Positions 1,510 to 25,212 of a stretch of 64,000 nucleotides of DNA are shown here, piece by piece. The stretch's first letter is position 1; each line of letters opens with the position of its first letter. Position numbers and translations under genes: made by a program. Below the pieces are notes generated by a model. That model worked only from the letters and a program-made list of their open reading frames with translations. It was not told the origin of the DNA and did not search any database. Origin of the DNA: Candidatus Tayloriibacteriota bacterium (GTDB lineage: Bacteria > Patescibacteriota > Minisyncoccia > Phycocordibacterales > PALSA-1337); NCBI GenBank assembly GCA_037130865.1, contig JBAXSG010000001.1:41429-105428 (forward strand), read 5' to 3'.

Positions 1510-2148
1510 TCACCGCCGTGCTTTTACGGGTTTTACGGATTCTGCTAGATAAGCCTGAACCATTAAAGCAAAACCACGCTCAATGACGAACTTGTAGCCG
1601 GGGCGATCGTAGGACGCATCTACCCACCGACCACCATCGGCACAGCCAACACGGAGAAAGAACGGGTTGCCTCTGGAATCCTTGACTGAGTCACACATGA
1701 CAACAATCCAATCCAGACCCATCTCCTTAAAGTCCTCATCCGAGAGCGTCTCACGGATTTGGAACAATATTTCAATGTTCGTCTCCAGTGCTTTTCCATA
1801 CTTCAGTCCGCGCTTGTCACCTTCGGCTTGAATGTTCTTGAAGGTGCGGTTACCGTCTTCGAACAGCACCCCTTTCAGCACCGCGATTTCGCGGATGACA
1901 CCAGTCGTCGGCGGCATAACCAGCTTACTGAAAACTTTAGTGGCTGATTTGCTAAAGCGGAAACCCTGATCCATAAGACGCTCTTTCCACTCTGGATATG
2001 TTGTACCGTTAGTGGCAGGAAGTTGGATATAAATTACACCATCAACTTCACGCCAACGCTTTACATGCTCTTTTGCAGCCATGATGATGGCCTTTCTCCG
2101 ACCAGTGGTCGGGATTGTCCTTATACATACGTGATAAGGATTGTTCAA
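1510..2148 (-). CDS. hypothetical protein on an elevated-GC segment, upstream neighbour of the DGR
   Basis: 212-aa ORF with no recognisable motifs. Local GC is visibly higher than the flanking pgk. Start is uncertain (an alternative Met at about 2082). Confidence 0.4.
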   Translation of the reverse strand: MNNPYHVCIRTIPTTGRRKAIIMAAKEHVKRWREVDGVIYIQLPATNGTTYPEWKERLMDQGFRFSKSATKVFSKLVMPPTTGVIREIAVLKGVLFEDGNRTFKNIQAEGDKRGLKYGKALETNIEILFQIRETLSDEDFKEMGLDWIVVMCDSVKDSRGNPFFLRVGCADGGRWVDASYDRPGYKFVIERGFALMVQAYLAESVKPVKARR

Positions 2149-2190
2149 TGTTCTTTACTGTCAATGGTATAGACCTTTTATGACTATCTG

Positions 2191-3273
2191 TCAATGACAT
2201 GAATTCGTCCACAACATTTGAGACTTTCCTGGTAATTGATTATATAACCTTATTTGTTGGCCTAGTTTATAACTATTTCCATGCGAAAGCATACCTAGAT
2301 AAGAGTTAAGCGTGGCCTCATATTTTTCGCTCTTTTCACTATCACCTTCACTATCTATAACTGCCTTTTTAGCCAACAAGTTTCTAAACATCCTCTTCTT
2401 GGTGGTTGTGCGTAAGACGCGATATTTAGGAAAATGAACCCAGCCAAGAAAATCTATACCGGAAGAAACAGTCTCTATCGATACTTTATCGGGATGAAGA
2501 TCCAGTCGCAATTCGCTCTGCAAAAAATCGCGAACTTTCGGGAGAAGACCGGCCAAAACACCTCGGTCATCATGCATAACCAAAAAATCATCGGCGTAGC
2601 GGATGTAATATCTCTGTTTCAGTTCATGTTTAATAAATTGATCCAATTCGTTTAAGTAAATATTTACCAGAAGTTGCGATGTAAGATTCCCAAGTGGCAG
2701 ACCTTTACCAAAACCGCCGGCACCACCAACAGCACCAACGACCTTACCACTAGAAAAACTGGAGATTATTTTCCAAAGCAACCCGAGAGTCGCATCATCC
2801 ACGGTATGCCTTCGTAAAACCCTCATCAAAACTTCATGATCAATAGAAGCGAAGCACTTGCGCACATCACATTTCAAGACCCAACAAGTTCGCCTGTGAT
2901 TTTTCGAAACTTTGCGTGCAAATTGTCTGAAACGATTTAGTGCTTTGTGAGTTCCTTTGAAATCTCTGCATGAATAAGAGTCAAAGATGAATCTCTTATC
3001 AAAAATCGGATACAAAATTCTGTATATAGAGTGATGCAATAATCTGTCACGAACAGTGGCTTTATGTATTATCCTAGTCTTAGGATCATTTATGATAAAA
3101 CTTTCATATAATCCGTGCGCATAGTTGCCATATAACAAATCTCTATATAAATCCGATATATTGCTAGACAGCTTTATTGTAAATTCAGCCACATCGTCTT
3201 TGCGGTTTTTGTCCACCACAAATTCCCGCCAGGCCTTGCATAAATTTTGAAAAGATATAATATCCTCGTACAT
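2191..3273 (-). CDS. diversity-generating retroelement (DGR) reverse transcriptase
   Basis: 360 aa. RT motifs are present: IINDPKTRIIHKATVRDRLLHHSIY (motifs 1/2), GLPLGNLTSQLLVNIYLNELD (motif 4 with the DGR-specific xGNLTSQ signature in place of group-II QGxxxSP) and YIRYADDFLVM (YADD catalytic motif 5). Size and N-terminus (ISFQNLCKAWREF) are typical of DGR RTs. Confidence 0.9.
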   Translation of the reverse strand: MYEDIISFQNLCKAWREFVVDKNRKDDVAEFTIKLSSNISDLYRDLLYGNYAHGLYESFIINDPKTRIIHKATVRDRLLHHSIYRILYPIFDKRFIFDSYSCRDFKGTHKALNRFRQFARKVSKNHRRTCWVLKCDVRKCFASIDHEVLMRVLRRHTVDDATLGLLWKIISSFSSGKVVGAVGGAGGFGKGLPLGNLTSQLLVNIYLNELDQFIKHELKQRYYIRYADDFLVMHDDRGVLAGLLPKVRDFLQSELRLDLHPDKVSIETVSSGIDFLGWVHFPKYRVLRTTTKKRMFRNLLAKKAVIDSEGDSEKSEKYEATLNSYLGMLSHGNSYKLGQQIRLYNQLPGKSQMLWTNSCH

Positions 3274-3332
3274 ATGAATTTAACTCAAAATCAAAATCTT
3301 TCTCATAGTACCCCCCCCGCAAAACGCCACAA

Positions 3333-3698
3333 GTGCTTTTGAAAGAGAAAGTGGTATACCGATCGTGGATATCGCTTCATAGGAATTTTCCGCGAATAGA
3401 AAGATTGGGTATTGGCCAAAAGATAGAGGCCTCTTTTCTGGATATTCTCGAATATACTTTCGTAGCAATGTATCTGGCATCTGACCAGAAAATTCTGATG
3501 CTCAGTAAAACCATAGCCAAACTAGATAAATTGAAATTTTTCATGCAAATAGCGTGGGAAAATAAACTCATACCAGAAGAAAAATATGCCCAGATATCGC
3601 TGGATCTTGAAGAGATTGGCCGCCAACTCGGCGGTTGGAGAAAGGGGTTGCAAACATCCGACCCAACGAAAACTCCCACCACAGGACAAGCCGCGTAG
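3333..3698 (+). CDS. avd: DGR accessory variability determinant (Avd-like four-helix bundle, 23S rRNA-IVS protein family)
   Basis: 121 aa from a GTG start. FPRIERLGIGQKIEASFLDILEYTFVA ... LEEIGRQLGGWRKGLQ aligns along its length with Bordetella phage bAvd (IPRKHGVAREMFLKCLLGQVELFIVA ... IAEVGRILGSWIARVNRKGQ). It lies between the RT and the TR but on the opposite strand. Confidence 0.72.
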   Translation: MLLKEKVVYRSWISLHRNFPRIERLGIGQKIEASFLDILEYTFVAMYLASDQKILMLSKTIAKLDKLKFFMQIAWENKLIPEEKYAQISLDLEEIGRQLGGWRKGLQTSDPTKTPTTGQAA

Positions 3699-3712
3699 TA
3701 GGAGAAATGGTA

Positions 3713-3830
3713 AGTTTCGGAACCACGATGCGATTCCTGTTCTCGGCGTTCCACACATTGTCGTTCAAGAAGCGGTTCACGTTCACCTTGGGAGCTCCAT
3801 CGGAGTCCAGATTCACGTTCGCGACGAAGA
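3713..3830 (-). repeat. DGR template repeat (TR)
   Basis: 118-nt segment homologous to 4163-4280. The conceptual translation VNLDSDGAPKVNVNRFLNDNVWNAENRNRIVVPKLT is rich in AAC/AAT codons. Every TR/VR difference falls on a minus-strand adenine of the TR. Confidence 0.85.
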
Positions 3831-4146
3831 AAATATGCAATAAACCATCCGTTACACCATCGGCCAAATCATGACCGATTGAATTTCATTTGGGACATAG
3901 AAGTCCGCCAGTTCATTGCACCAACTGACTATTTTTTGTTAATAGGAATACATCCACTCTCCTGCAAGACGTATCCGGCAGAATTCTCGAATGTATTTCT
4001 TCACAAGCGTGGCGCGGAAGCCTTGGCCGCCGCACATTCAGACTTGTGATGCTACTATAACAAAATCACCCCAACCTGTGGAGTGCCATCTTTTTCAGAC
4101 GGCACACCACAAGGGTCAGAGTGATTGATAGTCAGAGCGTCAAGCG

Positions 4147-4836
4147 CTAAGACTCGAGGGTCAGTTGCGGAACCACGATGCGACTCCTGCCCTCGGCGTA
4201 CCACACAATGCCGCACAAGAAGCGGTACACGTGCACCTTGGGAGCCCCATCGGAGTCCAGATCCACGCGCGCGACGAAGAGTTCACCATTGGCTTCGAAT
4301 AGGAAGAGCGTCCAGAAGTCTGTGCTGAGCCACTTGTGGTGGTTCTTCACAAACTGGATGATCTGAGGCTGTGGGAGGCACAGCTTTTTCGAATCCTCCG
4401 ACAAACTATCGAAGATTTTTTGATAGTTGCCGTTCTTGATGAGTTCATGAACAGCAACGTTCGTTTCCTTCGTCGGTTCGCTCTTCACATCGCAACCCCA
4501 GTTCTTGAAGTCGCAGTCGATGCCCCAGGTGAAAACTTTCTCTGCCCGAGCAATAGTCTCCTTGCCATCGGTTGGTTTGAGCGTGATGGTTTCCGCGCCC
4601 GAGATGAGCTTAAGGCAACCGCTCACGTTCTCGGTGATTTCTGCAAGCTTCTTCTTCACCGCTTCCATGACCACGGTTTTGAGTTCATTGCCGCGCTCCA
4701 CGAGTTTCTGAATGTTGTCACCGTTGATGACATCATTCTTTTCGAGGTCTTGGATCGCCTCCTCGGTGGCTTTACGAGCTGCCGATGTTGCGACTGTTAC
4801 GACTTGTTCTTTCTGACCAGATGTAATCGGTTTCAT
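4147..4836 (-). CDS. DGR target (variable) protein with a C-terminal VR-encoded ligand-binding segment
   Basis: 229 aa. The C-terminus ...FVARVDLDSDGAPKVHVYRFLCGIVWYAEGRSRIVVPQLTLES* is the diversified copy of the TR-encoded peptide (N->R/D/H/Y/C/I/Y/G/S, D->G, K->Q). There is no obvious N-terminal signal peptide. A ribosome-binding site AAAGGA lies 9 nt upstream of the ATG. Confidence 0.8.
   Translation of the reverse strand: MKPITSGQKEQVVTVATSAARKATEEAIQDLEKNDVINGDNIQKLVERGNELKTVVMEAVKKKLAEITENVSGCLKLISGAETITLKPTDGKETIARAEKVFTWGIDCDFKNWGCDVKSEPTKETNVAVHELIKNGNYQKIFDSLSEDSKKLCLPQPQIIQFVKNHHKWLSTDFWTLFLFEANGELFVARVDLDSDGAPKVHVYRFLCGIVWYAEGRSRIVVPQLTLES
4163..4280 (-). repeat. DGR variable repeat (VR) inside the 3-prime end of the target gene
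   Basis: Offset exactly 450 nt from the TR. There are 15 mismatches to the TR within 3731-3820 versus 4181-4270, all plus-strand T in the TR changed to C/A/G in the VR (adenine-specific on the coding strand). The 3-prime flank (4150-4170) is GC-rich and shows non-adenine mismatches to the TR (IMH versus IMH*-like). Confidence 0.85.
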
Positions 4837-5031
4837 GCCGTTATCATCCTTTCTTTATACGGCTTTCGGCCGGCCGTTGACTAACCTTCATTGGTTTCGC
4901 CACAGCAGACAGTTGCCATCGACATTAACCAAAATAGTTAACATCCTAGCCACTTTCTGCCATGGCGAAAATCGCATTTTATGTTCATTTCCGCAATATT
5001 CAAGGTGCTTTTACTACCCAATAGTATACAC

Positions 5032-5802
5032 CTAAATAGAGACTCTGTCAACCTCTTTTATAAGCTCCACAAATCCAGGAATATTTACACTTTCGCGGCC
5101 GACAAGAAGACCATCGACTTTTCCGATAGTGATAATGTCCGGCGCATTGCGGTATGTCACAGAACCACCATAGAGCACTGTAACTTTGAGACCCATATCG
5201 GCACCATAGAGATCAGCGAAAACTTTTTTAATGAAAAGCGAAGTCTCGTAAACATCTTCTGGCTTCATAGCTTCCGCGGCGCCGATAGCCCAGATTGGCT
5301 CATAAGCAACTATTATTGACTTGGCTGACTTCTTCAATATATCTCCACAACTGGCCTTGATCTGATCTTTCAGAAAACCTAGATACGCGCCGCTTTCATC
5401 GCGAACGGATTCTCCTATGCAAAGTATCGGCGTCAAACCTTGACCAAGTACCGCTTTCAAACGTGCCGCGACTGTTTCGTTGGTGTCGCCGCGCTTGCGC
5501 TGCTCCGAATGTCCAACGATGACATATTCAACTCCAATATCACGCAACATGTGCGCTCCAACTTCACCTGTATGTGGCCCACCTTCTTCTTGAGTAGAGA
5601 CCGTCTGCGCACCCATGTGAAAATGAGCAATCTTCTTGCGAGATGCGCAAGCTGTAATAAATGGCAATGGCGGACAGATCACGACTTCTGTATTGGCTAA
5701 GGCGGGTGCTGCGCGCTTGAATTTGTGCGAAAGTTTCTTGGCCTCAGCGAGCGTGGCTGGGTTCATTTTCCAGTTTCCGACTACTAGTTTTTTGTTAGTC
5801 AT
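5032..5802 (-). CDS. tpiA: triosephosphate isomerase
   Basis: MTNKKLVVGNWKMNPATLAEAKKL... has the canonical TIM N-terminus (GNWKMN) and catalytic residues. The ATG at 5802 is preferred over the ORF start at 5823. Confidence 0.92.
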   Translation of the reverse strand: MTNKKLVVGNWKMNPATLAEAKKLSHKFKRAAPALANTEVVICPPLPFITACASRKKIAHFHMGAQTVSTQEEGGPHTGEVGAHMLRDIGVEYVIVGHSEQRKRGDTNETVAARLKAVLGQGLTPILCIGESVRDESGAYLGFLKDQIKASCGDILKKSAKSIIVAYEPIWAIGAAEAMKPEDVYETSLFIKKVFADLYGADMGLKVTVLYGGSVTYRNAPDIITIGKVDGLLVGRESVNIPGFVELIKEVDRVSI

Positions 5803-5854
5803 TGGATAATTGTAACACAACAAAAATGTCCCGCCATTACGGCCATTGCTGCTA

Positions 5855-22801: not shown

Positions 22802-22872
22802 TGCGGGATGCGGGAGTCGAACCCGCGACATTTGTTTGGAAAACAAAAATTTTACCGTTAAACTAATCCCGC
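22802..22872 (-). tRNA. tRNA-Gly (anticodon TCC), no encoded CCA
   Basis: Reverse complement is GCGGGAT...TTTGT-TTTCCAA-ACAAA...GCGGGTTCGACTCCCGC-ATCCCGC-A. It has a 7-bp acceptor stem, a T-arm GGTTCGA and an A/T-rich D-arm. Confidence 0.82.
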
Positions 22873-22877
22873 GAGCC

Positions 22878-23552
22878 TCACTTTTCTAGAACACGGTCAA
22901 TCGTAGCAAGTATTTTCCTATGTAACAAGACGCCGAGTTCTTTGTCACCATAACTTTTTACACCAAGATGAGCTGTCCCAAATGGTAAGATCCCCGCTTT
23001 TTTTGTCTTCTTATTGAGACGACGGTCGATATAACATGGTAAGAAAGAACTTTTTGGTATCTTTAATTGTCTGACCCAAAATTGCAGCGCAGCATCTTCG
23101 TCACTATCGGGATATATATGAAGCCTAACTCTTATATTTGTATTGGGTACATTGAAACATTTATTTAGCCAAATGATTGAAAACCTAATTATCCTTGGAT
23201 CAGCATTAACTATTCTCAAAATATTGTGGGTCTTACTACCCTCTCCAATATAGATGCCAACGCCGAGCAGGAATAAGTCTCTGTGAGATAGTTTGCCAAT
23301 CATTCCCTCTGCATACCTATCTGCTTCAATAAGAGACCGGATTTTATCTACTCTTTTACCTACAACGCCCATCTTTTGGCCTTTAAGAATTGATTGTTTA
23401 GTTGTTTCGTTTGGCAAAAAATCAACATTTCTTAACCAACAACTTAGGGTGCTTTTCGAGACATTCAATTTTTGTGATATATAGCCATAAGCAAAACCCT
23501 TCTTACGGTAACCAATGGCTCGCTTTTTCAGTGCATACGAATACATATGCAC
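22878..23552 (-). CDS. HTH + LAGLIDADG-like (homing-endonuclease-like) protein
   Basis: N-terminal HTH (GYISQKLNVSKSTLSCWLRN) followed by two degenerate LAGLIDADG-like blocks (DLFLLGVGIYIGEGSK and ...FGTAHLGVKSYGDKELGVL). Its stop is 5 nt from the 5-prime end of tRNA-Gly. Confidence 0.45.
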   Translation of the reverse strand: MHMYSYALKKRAIGYRKKGFAYGYISQKLNVSKSTLSCWLRNVDFLPNETTKQSILKGQKMGVVGKRVDKIRSLIEADRYAEGMIGKLSHRDLFLLGVGIYIGEGSKTHNILRIVNADPRIIRFSIIWLNKCFNVPNTNIRVRLHIYPDSDEDAALQFWVRQLKIPKSSFLPCYIDRRLNKKTKKAGILPFGTAHLGVKSYGDKELGVLLHRKILATIDRVLEK

Positions 23553-23597
23553 TAATTATATCAGACCAGATGTGGTTCGTGCAATTCTTAAATTAAT

Positions 23598-24113
23598 TTA
23601 CCCCCTCTTTTCATCCGGATGATGAACAGCGTGTTCGTGCTCCATAACCTCTTTTATTTCATCTATTTCTTCTTTGATTATCTTCAGATCAACAATATCT
23701 TGCTCCATCTTTATCTCATCAACTTCTTTCTTCATTTCTTTTATGGTCGCTCTCATTCCCTTCAATTCCGCCTCCTCTTCTTCAACCTCTTTCTCTGTCT
23801 TTTCTGTTGTCTTTTTCTGCTTTTTAAGACCACTCATAAGTATCGTGTCACCTATAAAGTATGAAACGAATAGTCCGGTCATGAGCAAAACTATTGTCAT
23901 GATCACTAAGTTGTTCGGCTCATAGAAAATCAACTCCAACCAACCACCTTTGGCTTGTAAGATATCTGCTGTATGCCACACTCCCCTCCAGAAAAGCACT
24001 ATAGCCACACCACCGATGATTGTATAGATTATTGGATATTGACTCAAGTGTTCACGCACATGATCTTCGAGTTTATCGAAAAACCAGACTATTTTTTTGA
24101 ACAATGAAATCAT
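23598..24113 (-). CDS. hypothetical membrane protein with an acidic coiled-coil tail
   Basis: Two TM helices, then an EEEA/KEVDEIK-rich C-terminus ending in HEHAVHHPDEKRG. Confidence 0.4.
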   Translation of the reverse strand: MISLFKKIVWFFDKLEDHVREHLSQYPIIYTIIGGVAIVLFWRGVWHTADILQAKGGWLELIFYEPNNLVIMTIVLLMTGLFVSYFIGDTILMSGLKKQKKTTEKTEKEVEEEEAELKGMRATIKEMKKEVDEIKMEQDIVDLKIIKEEIDEIKEVMEHEHAVHHPDEKRG

Positions 24114-24152
24114 CTTTGTATTTTTTATCTTTCTCTGAAGAAACTCTTACCT

Positions 24153-24227
24153 GTCGGGGCGCCGGGATTCGAACCCGGAGTCACCTCTTCCCAAAAGAGG
24201 CATGTTAGCCGTTACACCACGCCCCGA
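24153..24227 (-). tRNA. tRNA-Pro (anticodon TGG), no encoded CCA
   Basis: Reverse complement ...CCTCT-TTTGGGA-AGAGG...CCGGGTTCGAATCCCGG-CGCCCCGA. Anticodon loop TTTGGGA. Confidence 0.8.
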
Positions 24228-24281
24228 AATATCCCTATTCCACTACAAACTAACTGTCGCATTATCGTAGCATAAAACATT

Positions 24282-24725
24282 CTATAAGACTAGATTTTTT
24301 AACCATTTTACATGTGCGAGACGAGTTCCTTTGTCCATATAGACGCAAAGTACATGAAATTGAAATTCTGACTCTGCTCCCCTACCAGACACCTCACTAC
24401 TCCTTTGCCCAAATTCTGCCATATATGTCTGAATCATTCGACGGATCTGCCTTAACTTGAAATTATGGACATTTTCTTCTGGTTCATGTCCGTTTGGATG
24501 ATTTCTCTGTACTGTCACACTCTTCACCTCAAAAAAGTGTAGAGTTGCTGATGTTGCACGTGAAACATCACTAGACTCGCGCGCAATAATATCTATCTCG
24601 CCCCATTTCTTGCGATAATTCCTCGCAGTAATGATAAAGCCCTTCTTCTCCAAAAACTTACAAGCTATATCCTCACCTATGTTTCCTATTGATCTTGTGC
24701 TCATAAATATTTTCTTAGAATCCAT
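24282..24725 (-). CDS. yraN: YraN/UPF0102-family endonuclease-like protein
   Basis: GNIGEDIACKFLEKKGFIITARNYRKKWGEIDIIA matches the YraN signature (GxxGExxAxxxLxxxGxxIxxRNxRxxxGEIDLIA). Confidence 0.7.
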   Translation of the reverse strand: MDSKKIFMSTRSIGNIGEDIACKFLEKKGFIITARNYRKKWGEIDIIARESSDVSRATSATLHFFEVKSVTVQRNHPNGHEPEENVHNFKLRQIRRMIQTYMAEFGQRSSEVSGRGAESEFQFHVLCVYMDKGTRLAHVKWLKNLVL

Positions 24726-24956
24726 ATTTTCAACACATTTTCAGTGACTTTTAAACTGTCTTATCCCAAAATCCACTGGCTGAGCCACAACAAGAAAAGA
24801 CATCATAAAATACACAAAAACTACGATAATTAGCCGTTTTTTATGTCTTTTATAGACAGCATCCACAGACTTATCCACAGTTTCTGTTTATACACTTATA
24901 CGATTAGCCATTCGTAAAGGAAAAACAGACAAGGACATATAAAGGCCAATGAAGTG

Positions 24957-25027
24957 TGCGGGTAGGGAGAATCGAACTCCCACCTCGTCCTTGGCAAGGA
25001 CGCGTCCTACCATTAAACAATACCCGC
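24957..25027 (-). tRNA. tRNA-Gly (anticodon GCC), no encoded CCA
   Basis: Reverse complement GCGGGTA...CGTCC-TTGCCAA-GGACG...GGGAGTTCGATTCTCCC-TACCCGC-A. Confidence 0.86.
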
Positions 25028-25140
25028 AATTATATATGTAATGACCTTAAAAATCTGACGTGCTTCAGTATAGCGCAACTTTCATTTTTTACAAAATCTT
25101 CTCACATAAATAAACTATCATCGTATCAACTGTTACCGTG

Positions 25141-25212
25141 TGCCCCCGGAGGGACTCGAACCCCCAACATCAGTTCCGAAGACTGGTGTGATATCCATTT
25201 CACCACGAGGGC
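25141..25212 (-). tRNA. tRNA-Arg (anticodon TCG), no encoded CCA
   Basis: Reverse complement GCCCTCG-TG-GTGA-AATGGATA-TCAC-A-CCAGT-CTTCGGA-ACTGA-TGTT-GGGGG-TTCGAGT-CCCTC-CGGGGGC-A. The cloverleaf folds with one mismatch in the anticodon stem. Confidence 0.72.

Follow-up and report, generated by a model that had tools for sequence, protein, structure and literature searches.

A 64,000-nt stretch of a Candidatus Tayloriibacteriota contig (hereafter the window, whose positions serve as coordinates throughout) carries a diversity-generating retroelement (DGR) in which the accessory gene avd lies on the strand opposite to the template repeat (TR) and the reverse transcriptase (RT) gene. We lean, if only slightly, towards the view that hypermutation by DGRs of this kind is phase-variable through a repeat in avd (poly-C, (CA)n or (GA)n), with most genomes in the OFF state, and that the TR is supplied by a stand-alone RNA of ~400 nt with a five-helix 5' scaffold and a terminator hairpin that may double as an Avd-binding or self-priming element. 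The combination of a DGR of the published B3 layout, a stand-alone TR RNA and an avd gene gated by its repeat is, taken as a whole, fairly probable.

Organization of the DGR cassette

The RT gene (3273->2191, minus strand) encodes a protein of 360 aa that matches Pfam RVT_1 (E = 3e-27), and it is divergent from avd. The top match of the RT among solved structures is the Bordetella phage DGR RT (8ub7_A, E = 9.5e-40), with the RTs of retrons and group II introns at ~1e-14. The body of avd occupies 3333-3698 on the plus strand, and its 121-aa product scores 48.5 bits against Pfam bAvd (PF22296, cut-off 40 bits) over profile positions 17-106 of 107; 87 homologs of it were found in the protein database. 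Sequence and profile searches with Avd against the PDB returned nothing relevant, and it was a fold search that gave the match. The AlphaFold model (predicted local distance difference test, pLDDT, 90.2) is a four-helix bundle that superposes on Bordetella Avd (4dwl) with Foldseek template modeling (TM) scores of 0.79 and 0.88 and a root-mean-square deviation of 1.5 A, and it also superposes on the chains of Avd in the DGR ribonucleoproteins 8ub7 and 8ube. The original prediction, made from the sequence alone, had placed the RT (3273->2191) and the TR (3830->3713) on the minus strand and had called the plus-strand open reading frame (ORF) between them an Avd; all of these coordinates and strands are correct, and the identification of Avd is borne out by both the profile and the fold. 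The further claim that the minus strand holds no Avd there agrees with the searches, as the four minus-strand ORFs in 3280-3867 are without a Pfam match and tblastn over the whole 64-kb window detected one Avd and one RT, with no second Avd.

Two direct repeats of 122 nt, 87% identical, lie at 3709-3830 and 4159-4280. Because 15 of the 16 mismatches between them fall at adenines of the 3830->3713 copy when this is read on the minus strand, that copy is taken to be the TR (3713-3830), with the minus strand as its sense strand, as for the RT and the target gene; its homology to the variable repeat (VR; 4163-4280, minus strand) reaches 3709. The core of the TR occurs only twice in the window. The VR (4280->4163) ends 16 nt ahead of the stop codon of the target gene (4147-4836, minus strand), which encodes 229 aa with the VR at the C-terminus. 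The target gene product has no significant Pfam match, and 29 related loci have a homolog of it in the corresponding place. Downstream of the VR and the target stop codon, reading of the sequence identified a hairpin, GTGCCGTC-TGAAAAA-GATGGCAC (4083-4105, minus strand), which by its position may be the counterpart of the inverted repeat that follows the initiation of mutagenic homing (IMH) site of some DGRs (Wu et al. 2018, Nucleic Acids Res, PMC5758913).

The cassette was compared with 80 loci from species-representative genomes (RT identity 53-60%) and 80 metagenome loci, none of which exceeded ~61% RT identity among the matches listed; closer relatives, including the locus designated L166, were obtained through exact-protein look-ups. 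The host labels of these relatives are nearly all Patescibacteria, Paceibacterota, Parcubacteria or other metagenome-assembled genomes (MAGs) of the Candidate Phyla Radiation (CPR). In the window the order is target gene with VR, a spacer of ~330 nt, TR, avd on the opposite strand, and RT. An opposite-strand Avd homolog stands immediately upstream of the RT in 149 of the 150 loci with at least 450 nt of sequence upstream of the RT. TR/VR pairs were present in 125 loci; in 121 of them at least 75% of the mismatches fall at TR adenines on the RT strand, which places the TR on that strand, and in all 125 the TR adjoins the 3' end of avd and has the VR upstream of it (median VR-TR gap 335 nt).

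This arrangement is the architecture B3 of Wu et al., written as 'TR-(avd)-RT' with the parentheses denoting the reverse strand, which makes up 90% of the CPR DGR set and is almost missing outside the CPR (Wu et al. 2018, PMC5758913). Order and orientation in the window are exactly those of B3, with no difference in arrangement, and both the core order of TR, reverse-strand avd and RT and the CPR hosts are as in that class. The original prediction had regarded the inversion of avd as a departure from the usual DGR order and had proposed a comparison with related loci; the inversion is real but already described, and is the standard layout of CPR DGRs. With a DGR-type RT, an adenine-biased TR/VR pair whose VR stands at the 3' end of the target ORF, and an Avd, the element is essentially certain to be a chromosomal DGR of a CPR (Patescibacteria) bacterium and an ordinary member of the B3 layout.

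The avd leader and its repeat tract

The reading frame of avd is open from 3309, and GTG 3333 is the first canonical start codon in it. Upstream of this point on the plus strand, a leader ORF (3274-3342) opens with ATG 3274, which abuts the start codon of the RT (CAT/ATG), and a poly-C tract of eight residues (C8; G8 on the RT strand) at 3311-3318 lies between the leader ATG and the avd body as a candidate simple-sequence-repeat switch. In the C8 allele of the window the leader is out of frame with avd and ends at the stop codon 3340-3342, giving the product MNLTQNQNLSHSTPPAKRHKCF, and a C9 allele would encode a 141-aa Avd beginning with MNLTQNQNLSHSTPPRKTPQVLLKEK.

The layout of the avd strand is common to the loci and consists of the RT start (CAT), an ATG, 7-14 codons, the C run, 4-9 codons and helix 1. 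At the tract site 136 of 149 loci have a run of C6-C13, most often of 9-10 residues. The tract is the sole G/C run of at least 7 nt in the 64-kb window, and across 952 kb of related loci runs of at least 8 nt number 120 at the tract site versus 18 elsewhere. In 67 of 68 loci an ATG no more than 60 nt upstream has its frame open into the run (mean of 27 and maximum of 39 in shuffles), and the codons between the tract and helix 1 are kept as protein (R-x-L-L-P-V/Q), with synonymous differences between loci. Among the loci without a C run (n = 13), four carry (CA)8-17, two carry (GA)11-13 and two carry C5 remnants at the tract site, and four distinct loci that are free of any repeat (L044, L052, L061 and L150) have, without exception, a leader ATG in frame with Avd. 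Because the repeat-free loci are all in frame and dinucleotide repeats take the place of poly-C elsewhere, the leader ATG 3274 seems to be the real translation start of avd; and because (CA)n and (GA)n can replace the C run and the repeat-free loci stay in frame, it would be the hypermutable repeat as such that is conserved, and not a poly-C motif.

The codons available after the tract sit poorly with an account in which Avd starts beyond it, at a GTG, a TTG or a non-canonical codon, in which the length differences are errors of assembly or sequencing, and in which the G-run has its function on the RT strand, for example as the spacer of a promoter or an element of the 5' untranslated region of the RT. 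Between the run and helix 1 the avd frame is without ATG in 66 of 68 loci, and 31 of the 68 have no ATG, GTG or TTG there and hence no canonical start before helix 1; in 22 loci the first canonical start would truncate helix 1. An in-frame leader is evident in ~20 of the 87 database homologs, which start M-x(4-12)-(T)-P-P(P)-R-x-x-P-x-V-I/L-L-K, with the rest starting at assorted internal codons. The same account does draw on the error-prone nature of homopolymers, on the presence of GTG 3333 in the window, and on the inconsistent placement of the avd start by gene callers, which on the window's element give no avd or a product of 76 aa or 97 aa. In addition, the G-run is upstream of the RT start at a median distance of 32 nt, and in 28 of 115 loci the run is immediately followed by TAnnnT, versus ~4 per offset in controls. 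Set against this are the upstream ATG that is open into the tract far beyond its frequency in shuffles, the four repeat-free loci that are all in frame, and the dinucleotide repeats that replace poly-C in six loci, contrary to a role specific to a G-run. We regard a start beyond an artefactual or RT-serving tract as very improbable.

Two further features were observed around the leader. A TATAAT at 3256-3261 (plus strand), 12 nt before the avd ATG, falls within the RT codons for a conserved D-I-I motif; nearly all relatives have an equivalent (TATGAT, TATAAT or TAATAT). The box may be the -10 element of a near-leaderless avd mRNA, its conservation being confounded by RT coding. In L037, L053, L022 and others the RT has an N-terminal extension of seven codons (M-K/R-I-Q-L-V-H) that is antisense to leader codons 1-7 (M-N-Q-L-N-F/S-H), and this 21-nt overlap of RT and leader, ATGAAAATTCAATTGGTTCAT, has an ATG start on both strands (window equivalent 3253-3294). 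In the window the two ATG codons abut, and a stop codon breaks the remnant of the RT extension.

Tract length and reading frame

Read from the leader ATG, 27 of 115 distinct loci are in frame with Avd and 88 are out of frame. From the run onwards, 114 of the 115 have an open avd frame, and a change of +1 or -1 nt would restore 87 of the 88 out-of-frame loci. Tract length also differs between contigs with flanks of 120 and 250 nt at 100% identity: L015 is out of frame with C10 and L094 in frame with C9, L038 is out with C10 and L121 in with C9, L064 is out with C11 and L137 in with C12, and L139 and L144 are in frame with C10 and L140 out with C8. L086 (C10) and L154 (C9) have identical flanks as well, each being in frame via a different ATG, and for the dinucleotide repeats (CA)9 in L024 is out of frame and (CA)8 in L107, with the same flanks, is in frame. 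The closest relative of the window, L166 (94% nt identity over RT-avd, with a shared tpiA...pgk neighbourhood), has C9 and an in-frame Avd of 137 aa (P0001), and because of this the window is read as a -1, out-of-frame allele. Both a length-dependent frame and length polymorphism among otherwise identical sequences, as expected of a contingency locus, are therefore seen at this site, in consensus assemblies throughout.

The VR is identical in all six assemblies that have the C8 allele of the window (the window and five look-ups). Within the groups L139/L144/L140 and L086/L154 the TRs are identical and the VRs differ at 15-23 positions, 14-21 of which are at TR adenines; these groups include in-frame avd alleles, and the comparison with the C8 set is an anecdotal one.

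In the mechanism proposed here, translation of Avd would start at ATG 3274 and read through the hypermutable poly-C run, where slipped-strand mispairing would add or remove a C and thereby bring the leader into or out of frame with the Avd body. Because full-length Avd depends on the frame, mutagenic retrohoming would be switched along with it, stochastically ON or OFF, and the C8 of the window would be an OFF frame. We consider it moderately probable, from these sequence comparisons, that Avd is gated by the repeat tract.

Several observations weigh against such a switch. All of the sequences are consensus assemblies, in which homopolymer length is error-prone, and in several of the identical pairs one member is a MAG and the other the contig it was derived from. 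At 27/115 (23%), the share of loci in frame does not exceed the 1/3 that chance would give, so there is no selection for an ON frame in the majority genotype; this fraction fits a mostly-OFF switch and a frame-independent slippage equally well. In the window, a complete four-helix Avd that lacks the leader could be initiated at GTG 3333, and also at TTG 3339, and the 'OFF' state may be leaky as a result. An effect of the G-run on RT transcription is possible too, and is unsupported in most loci.

The frame-independent slippage just mentioned would make the poly-C a site of programmed slippage, through stuttering of RNA polymerase or frameshifting of ribosomes on CCC CCC C, with steady low production of Avd at any tract length. 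Such a mechanism would tolerate the 77% of consensus alleles that are out of frame, in both directions. Runs of proline codons pause and slip ribosomes, and a strong hairpin that follows the run in 11 of 68 loci (folding z < -1.5), with compensatory changes in L005, L015, L064 and L039/L049, resembles frameshift stimulators. This hairpin is missing, however, from most loci and from the window (z = 0.17). The (CA)n and (GA)n tracts of six loci are classic DNA-slippage repeats and not frameshift sites, and neither the uniform in-frame reading of the repeat-free loci nor the variation in tract length between otherwise identical contigs favours programmed slippage, which we consider a serious rival, if a doubtful one. 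Slippage and DNA-level switching are not mutually exclusive; switching at the level of DNA is favoured by the dinucleotide repeats and by the repeat-free alleles being in frame.

A universal post-run hairpin acting as a frameshift stimulator was also considered and was rejected, as it occurs in only ~11 of the 68 loci and the window is without it. Where present, in L005, L006, L008, L015, L023, L039, L049 and L064, it is a perfect hairpin of 9-11 bp within the first 25 nt after the run, with stems that differ in a compensatory manner (GAGAATTAC/GTAATTCTC, GAGGATTAC/GTAATCCTC and GAGAAGCGC/GCGCTTCTC), and is a candidate slippage stimulator, translational control element or protein-binding site.

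A probable separate template RNA

It is highly probable, as judged by comparative sequence analysis, that the TR is carried by a separate RNA of ~400 nt (~4047 to ~3668, minus strand) that is convergent with avd. On the 5' side of the TR lies a structured domain of five helices (3835-4035, minus strand), predicted by RNA folding to comprise P1 (4035-4012), P2 (3996-3948, with an inner hairpin at 3983-3960), an A-rich linker, P3 (3921-3910 with 3846-3835), P4 (3906-3893) and P5 (3879-3859). The nt identity of this domain is 80-82% over ~200 nt to loci with an RT protein identity of ~58-60%. RNAalifold on 31 loci returned five helices that comprise 51 pairs, and compensatory changes occur at 42 of these. 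Paired cells make up 94.8% of the alignment of these helices versus 39-50% in slid controls, double-change cells number 345 versus 35-66, and none of 500 shuffles reached the observed values. Because G-U pairs are abundant, the strand of the domain is taken to be that of the TR and RT. A covariance model built for the TR-proximal half of the domain (P3-P5) found one match per locus, 71 in 710 kb, each of which is on the strand of the RT and runs up to the TR; 42 of these are outside the seed (41 relatives and L166), and the single match in the window is at 3934->3826.

On the other side of the TR is a predicted intrinsic terminator (3665-3704, minus strand), which in the window has the form typical of such elements on the transcribed strand: a hairpin (3704->3673, 13 bp, dG -16.2) and then a U-tract, UUUUCGUU, at 3672->3665. 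Of 99 distinct loci, 94 have a hairpin and T-run within 120 nt of the TR end; the dG is -8 or below in 91, and the consensus is ...AUUU-CUCYC...GRGAG-UUUU(G/C)UUU. A stricter search, in which the UUUU is invariant by selection, gave 84 hairpins with 64 distinct stem sequences, and pairs 1-7 of the stem are paired in 89-100% versus 57-61% in slid controls. The stop codon of avd (3696-3698) lies within the terminator hairpin on the other strand; it is inside the hairpin in 42 loci, the window included, and beyond it in 48. The C-terminal 'KTP' tail of Avd, which is variable and disordered in the model, is therefore an antisense reading of the stem and U-tract. The overlap of the predicted TR RNA with avd is confined to the last ~34 nt of the gene (~11 codons).

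A near-invariant 'AACU' at the 3' end of the TR (3709-3720, minus strand) is the complement of the 'AGUU' where the terminator stem meets the U-tract (3673-3668). The terminated RNA could fold back on itself, in a manner reminiscent of the priming duplex between TR and spacer (Sp) RNA in phage BPP-1; both sides are invariant.

At the 5' end, a terminator-like hairpin of the target gene (4085->4067) overlaps a promoter-like site for the TR RNA, the two together spanning 4054-4085 on the minus strand. The promoter-like site has TCCACA at -35 (4082-4077) and TATAGT at -10 (4059-4054), with a TG just before the -10, and in 29 of 31 aligned relatives a TATACT, TATAAT or TATAGT box occurs 13-20 nt 5' of P1, directly after the hairpin and GGGGGAUUUUU. 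Promoter prediction across 3270-3900 had been suggested as a check in the original prediction. A sigma-70 consensus scan of 2000-5100 was uninformative alone, at the level of chance (6 sites versus 5.7 expected from shuffles), and only one of the six sites, 4082->4054, gained support from its conservation in relatives. No conserved RT promoter was found by the consensus scan, and the TAnnnT that follows the G-run in some loci is without a conserved -35.

The cassette would then be expressed as a series of separate units. The first would be the target gene, ending in its terminator, and the second a minus-strand, non-coding TR RNA of ~400 nt made up of the -10 box (4059-4054), the 5' domain (4035->3835), the TR (3830->3713) and the terminator (3704->3665). 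The third would be plus-strand avd, which runs towards the TR RNA and has its last ~11 codons antisense to the terminator, and the fourth the minus-strand RT, which diverges from avd, the two start codons being directly adjacent. The TR RNA would act in trans on a complex of RT and Avd, and no transcript would have to cross avd in the antisense direction. DGR cassettes with parts on different strands require two or more transcription units (Wu et al. 2018, PMC5758913).

The original prediction had reasoned that any transcript joining the TR to the RT must run antisense through avd, and this is probably wrong as a statement of how the locus is expressed. A single minus-strand TR-RT transcript that crosses avd, and either regulates it or supplies the RT mRNA, is in our view improbable. 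A hairpin and U-tract with covarying stems stands between the TR and the avd body in almost all of the loci, and the conserved RNA structure lies entirely 5' of the TR. The antisense strand of avd shows no conservation beyond what its coding strand explains, and the 48 nt that follow the repeat fold no better than shuffles in most loci. For a joint transcript it can be said that the TR and the RT are on the same strand, only 440 nt apart, that scans of the locus and its relatives found no conserved promoter for the RT, and that intrinsic terminators are seldom 100% efficient. The TR and brt of the Bordetella phage DGR are likewise co-oriented and adjacent, yet the TR and the RT can be on different strands in DGRs, and the two thus need not be co-transcribed (Wu et al. 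2018, PMC5758913).

Of the two explanations offered with the antisense claim, we favour separate promoters with a TR RNA that acts in trans; antisense regulation of avd may occur through terminator read-through and is not required. Against a wholly separate TR RNA stands the lack of a conserved RT promoter in the scans described above, so that there may be some read-through of the terminator into avd and RT. The post-TR hairpin may also, by analogy with other DGRs, be mainly an Avd-binding element instead of, or besides, a terminator.

Relation to known systems

The DGR of phage BPP-1 (mtd-VR, avd, TR, brt; PDB 8ub7-8ube) resembles that of the window in its homologous RT, in the fold of Avd (TM ~0.8) and in the adenine-specific differences between TR and VR. 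A stem-loop just 3' of the TR has been predicted in 207 of 278 Avd-containing DGRs, those of the CPR included, and an Avd-binding role has been predicted for it in other DGRs (bioRxiv 10.1101/2023.10.23.563531). The window has a stem-loop of ~9 bp just 3' of its TR, as that preprint predicts, and the post-TR hairpin is probably the counterpart of this element. Unlike BPP-1, the window has an inverted avd in the place of the Sp RNA, a conserved RNA scaffold 5' of the TR, and a stem-loop that is followed by a U-tract, is terminator-like and overlaps the stop codon of avd. A DGR RNA of the BPP-1 type, in which the avd 3' end, the TR and a spacer bearing the priming adenosine lie directly upstream of the RT, is not found here: the interval between TR and RT holds the inverted avd, and the conserved RNA consists only of the 5' domain and of the post-TR hairpin and U-tract.

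Contingency loci with poly-G or poly-C tracts are found in Neisseria, Haemophilus, Campylobacter and Helicobacter, and a (TA)n tract lies between the hifA and hifB promoters of H. influenzae. The avd site is like these in that a homopolymer of 8-13 nt stands close to the 5' end of an ORF and by its length toggles the frame between otherwise identical sequences, and also in its alternative repeat types, its in-frame repeat-free alleles and the position of the repeat between divergent genes. It differs in that avd, the gene that would be gated, encodes an accessory factor of targeted hypermutation in the CPR and not a surface antigen or a restriction-modification system. A full-text literature search found no paper tying a DGR or avd to a repeat or to phase-variation switching; the repeat tract in avd appears to be a feature not previously reported, and an earlier description of it is possible. 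The text of Wu et al. (2018, PMC5758913) makes no mention of a TR-RNA promoter, a 5' domain, a terminator or an avd-leader repeat.

Structured RNAs adjoining RT genes have been described as the motifs RT-1 to RT-19, of which RT-10 lies in the TR-brt spacer of BPP-1 and others were speculated to be parts of DGRs (Weinberg et al. 2017, PMC5737381). The 5' domain is like them in lying next to an RT gene. In Rfam searches of the domain on the TR strand (3945-4037), RT-9 (RF03080) aligned to P1 with 20.8 bits (threshold 46.1), and RT-7 (RF03028) aligned to the P2 hairpin, with its GAGAAU/AGAGUG internal loop, with 17.5 bits (threshold 116.8). Membership of the 5' domain in either family as curated was rejected, as both scores are below the gathering thresholds and cover partial hairpins only, and no Rfam family reached its threshold in the DGR region of the window or in 16 relatives. 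RT-9 and RT-7 may be distant relatives of the DGR 5' domain.

Flanking genes

An ORF of 212 aa (1510-2148, minus strand) just downstream of the RT belongs to no Pfam family and is 27-37% identical to the target-position proteins of L025, L055, L009, L132 and L139-L144. Part of this match falls in the segment that is encoded by the VR and TR in the relatives, and the copy in the window contains no TR-matching sequence; the ORF may be a former or orphan DGR target. L166 (1-4461) aligns to 1617-5825 of the window with 94% nt identity over RT-avd, 89% when the alignment is extended to window position 3984, and 88% over tpiA. The TR, VR and target gene of L166 are unrelated in sequence to those of the window, and the TR/target cassette has apparently been exchanged as a module, with RT-avd kept.

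Next to tpiA, the segment 5855-9359 (minus strand) was read in translation to contain ORFs with type IV pilin-like N-termini (containing GFSLIEVVVGSALFLVV and GMTLVETLVALSIFLVI) and a multi-pass membrane protein resembling PilC/GspF. Four tRNA genes spanning 2.4 kb (22802-25212, minus strand) are the sole Rfam matches at the gathering threshold in the window.

Implications

The inverted avd by itself matters little, as it is the standard layout of CPR DGRs. The locus touches on two other questions, namely how DGR mutagenesis is restrained and what constitutes a functional template RNA outside the Bordetella phage model. A TR RNA with a defined promoter, 5' scaffold, TR and terminator would specify the exact constructs for reconstitution of a CPR DGR. 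If the repeat in avd is a real switch, CPR bacteria would hold bet-hedging ON/OFF control over a hypermutation machine, and this would account for the apparent inactivity of many DGRs in metagenomes and for the failure of gene finders to call avd correctly, or at all, in these genomes.

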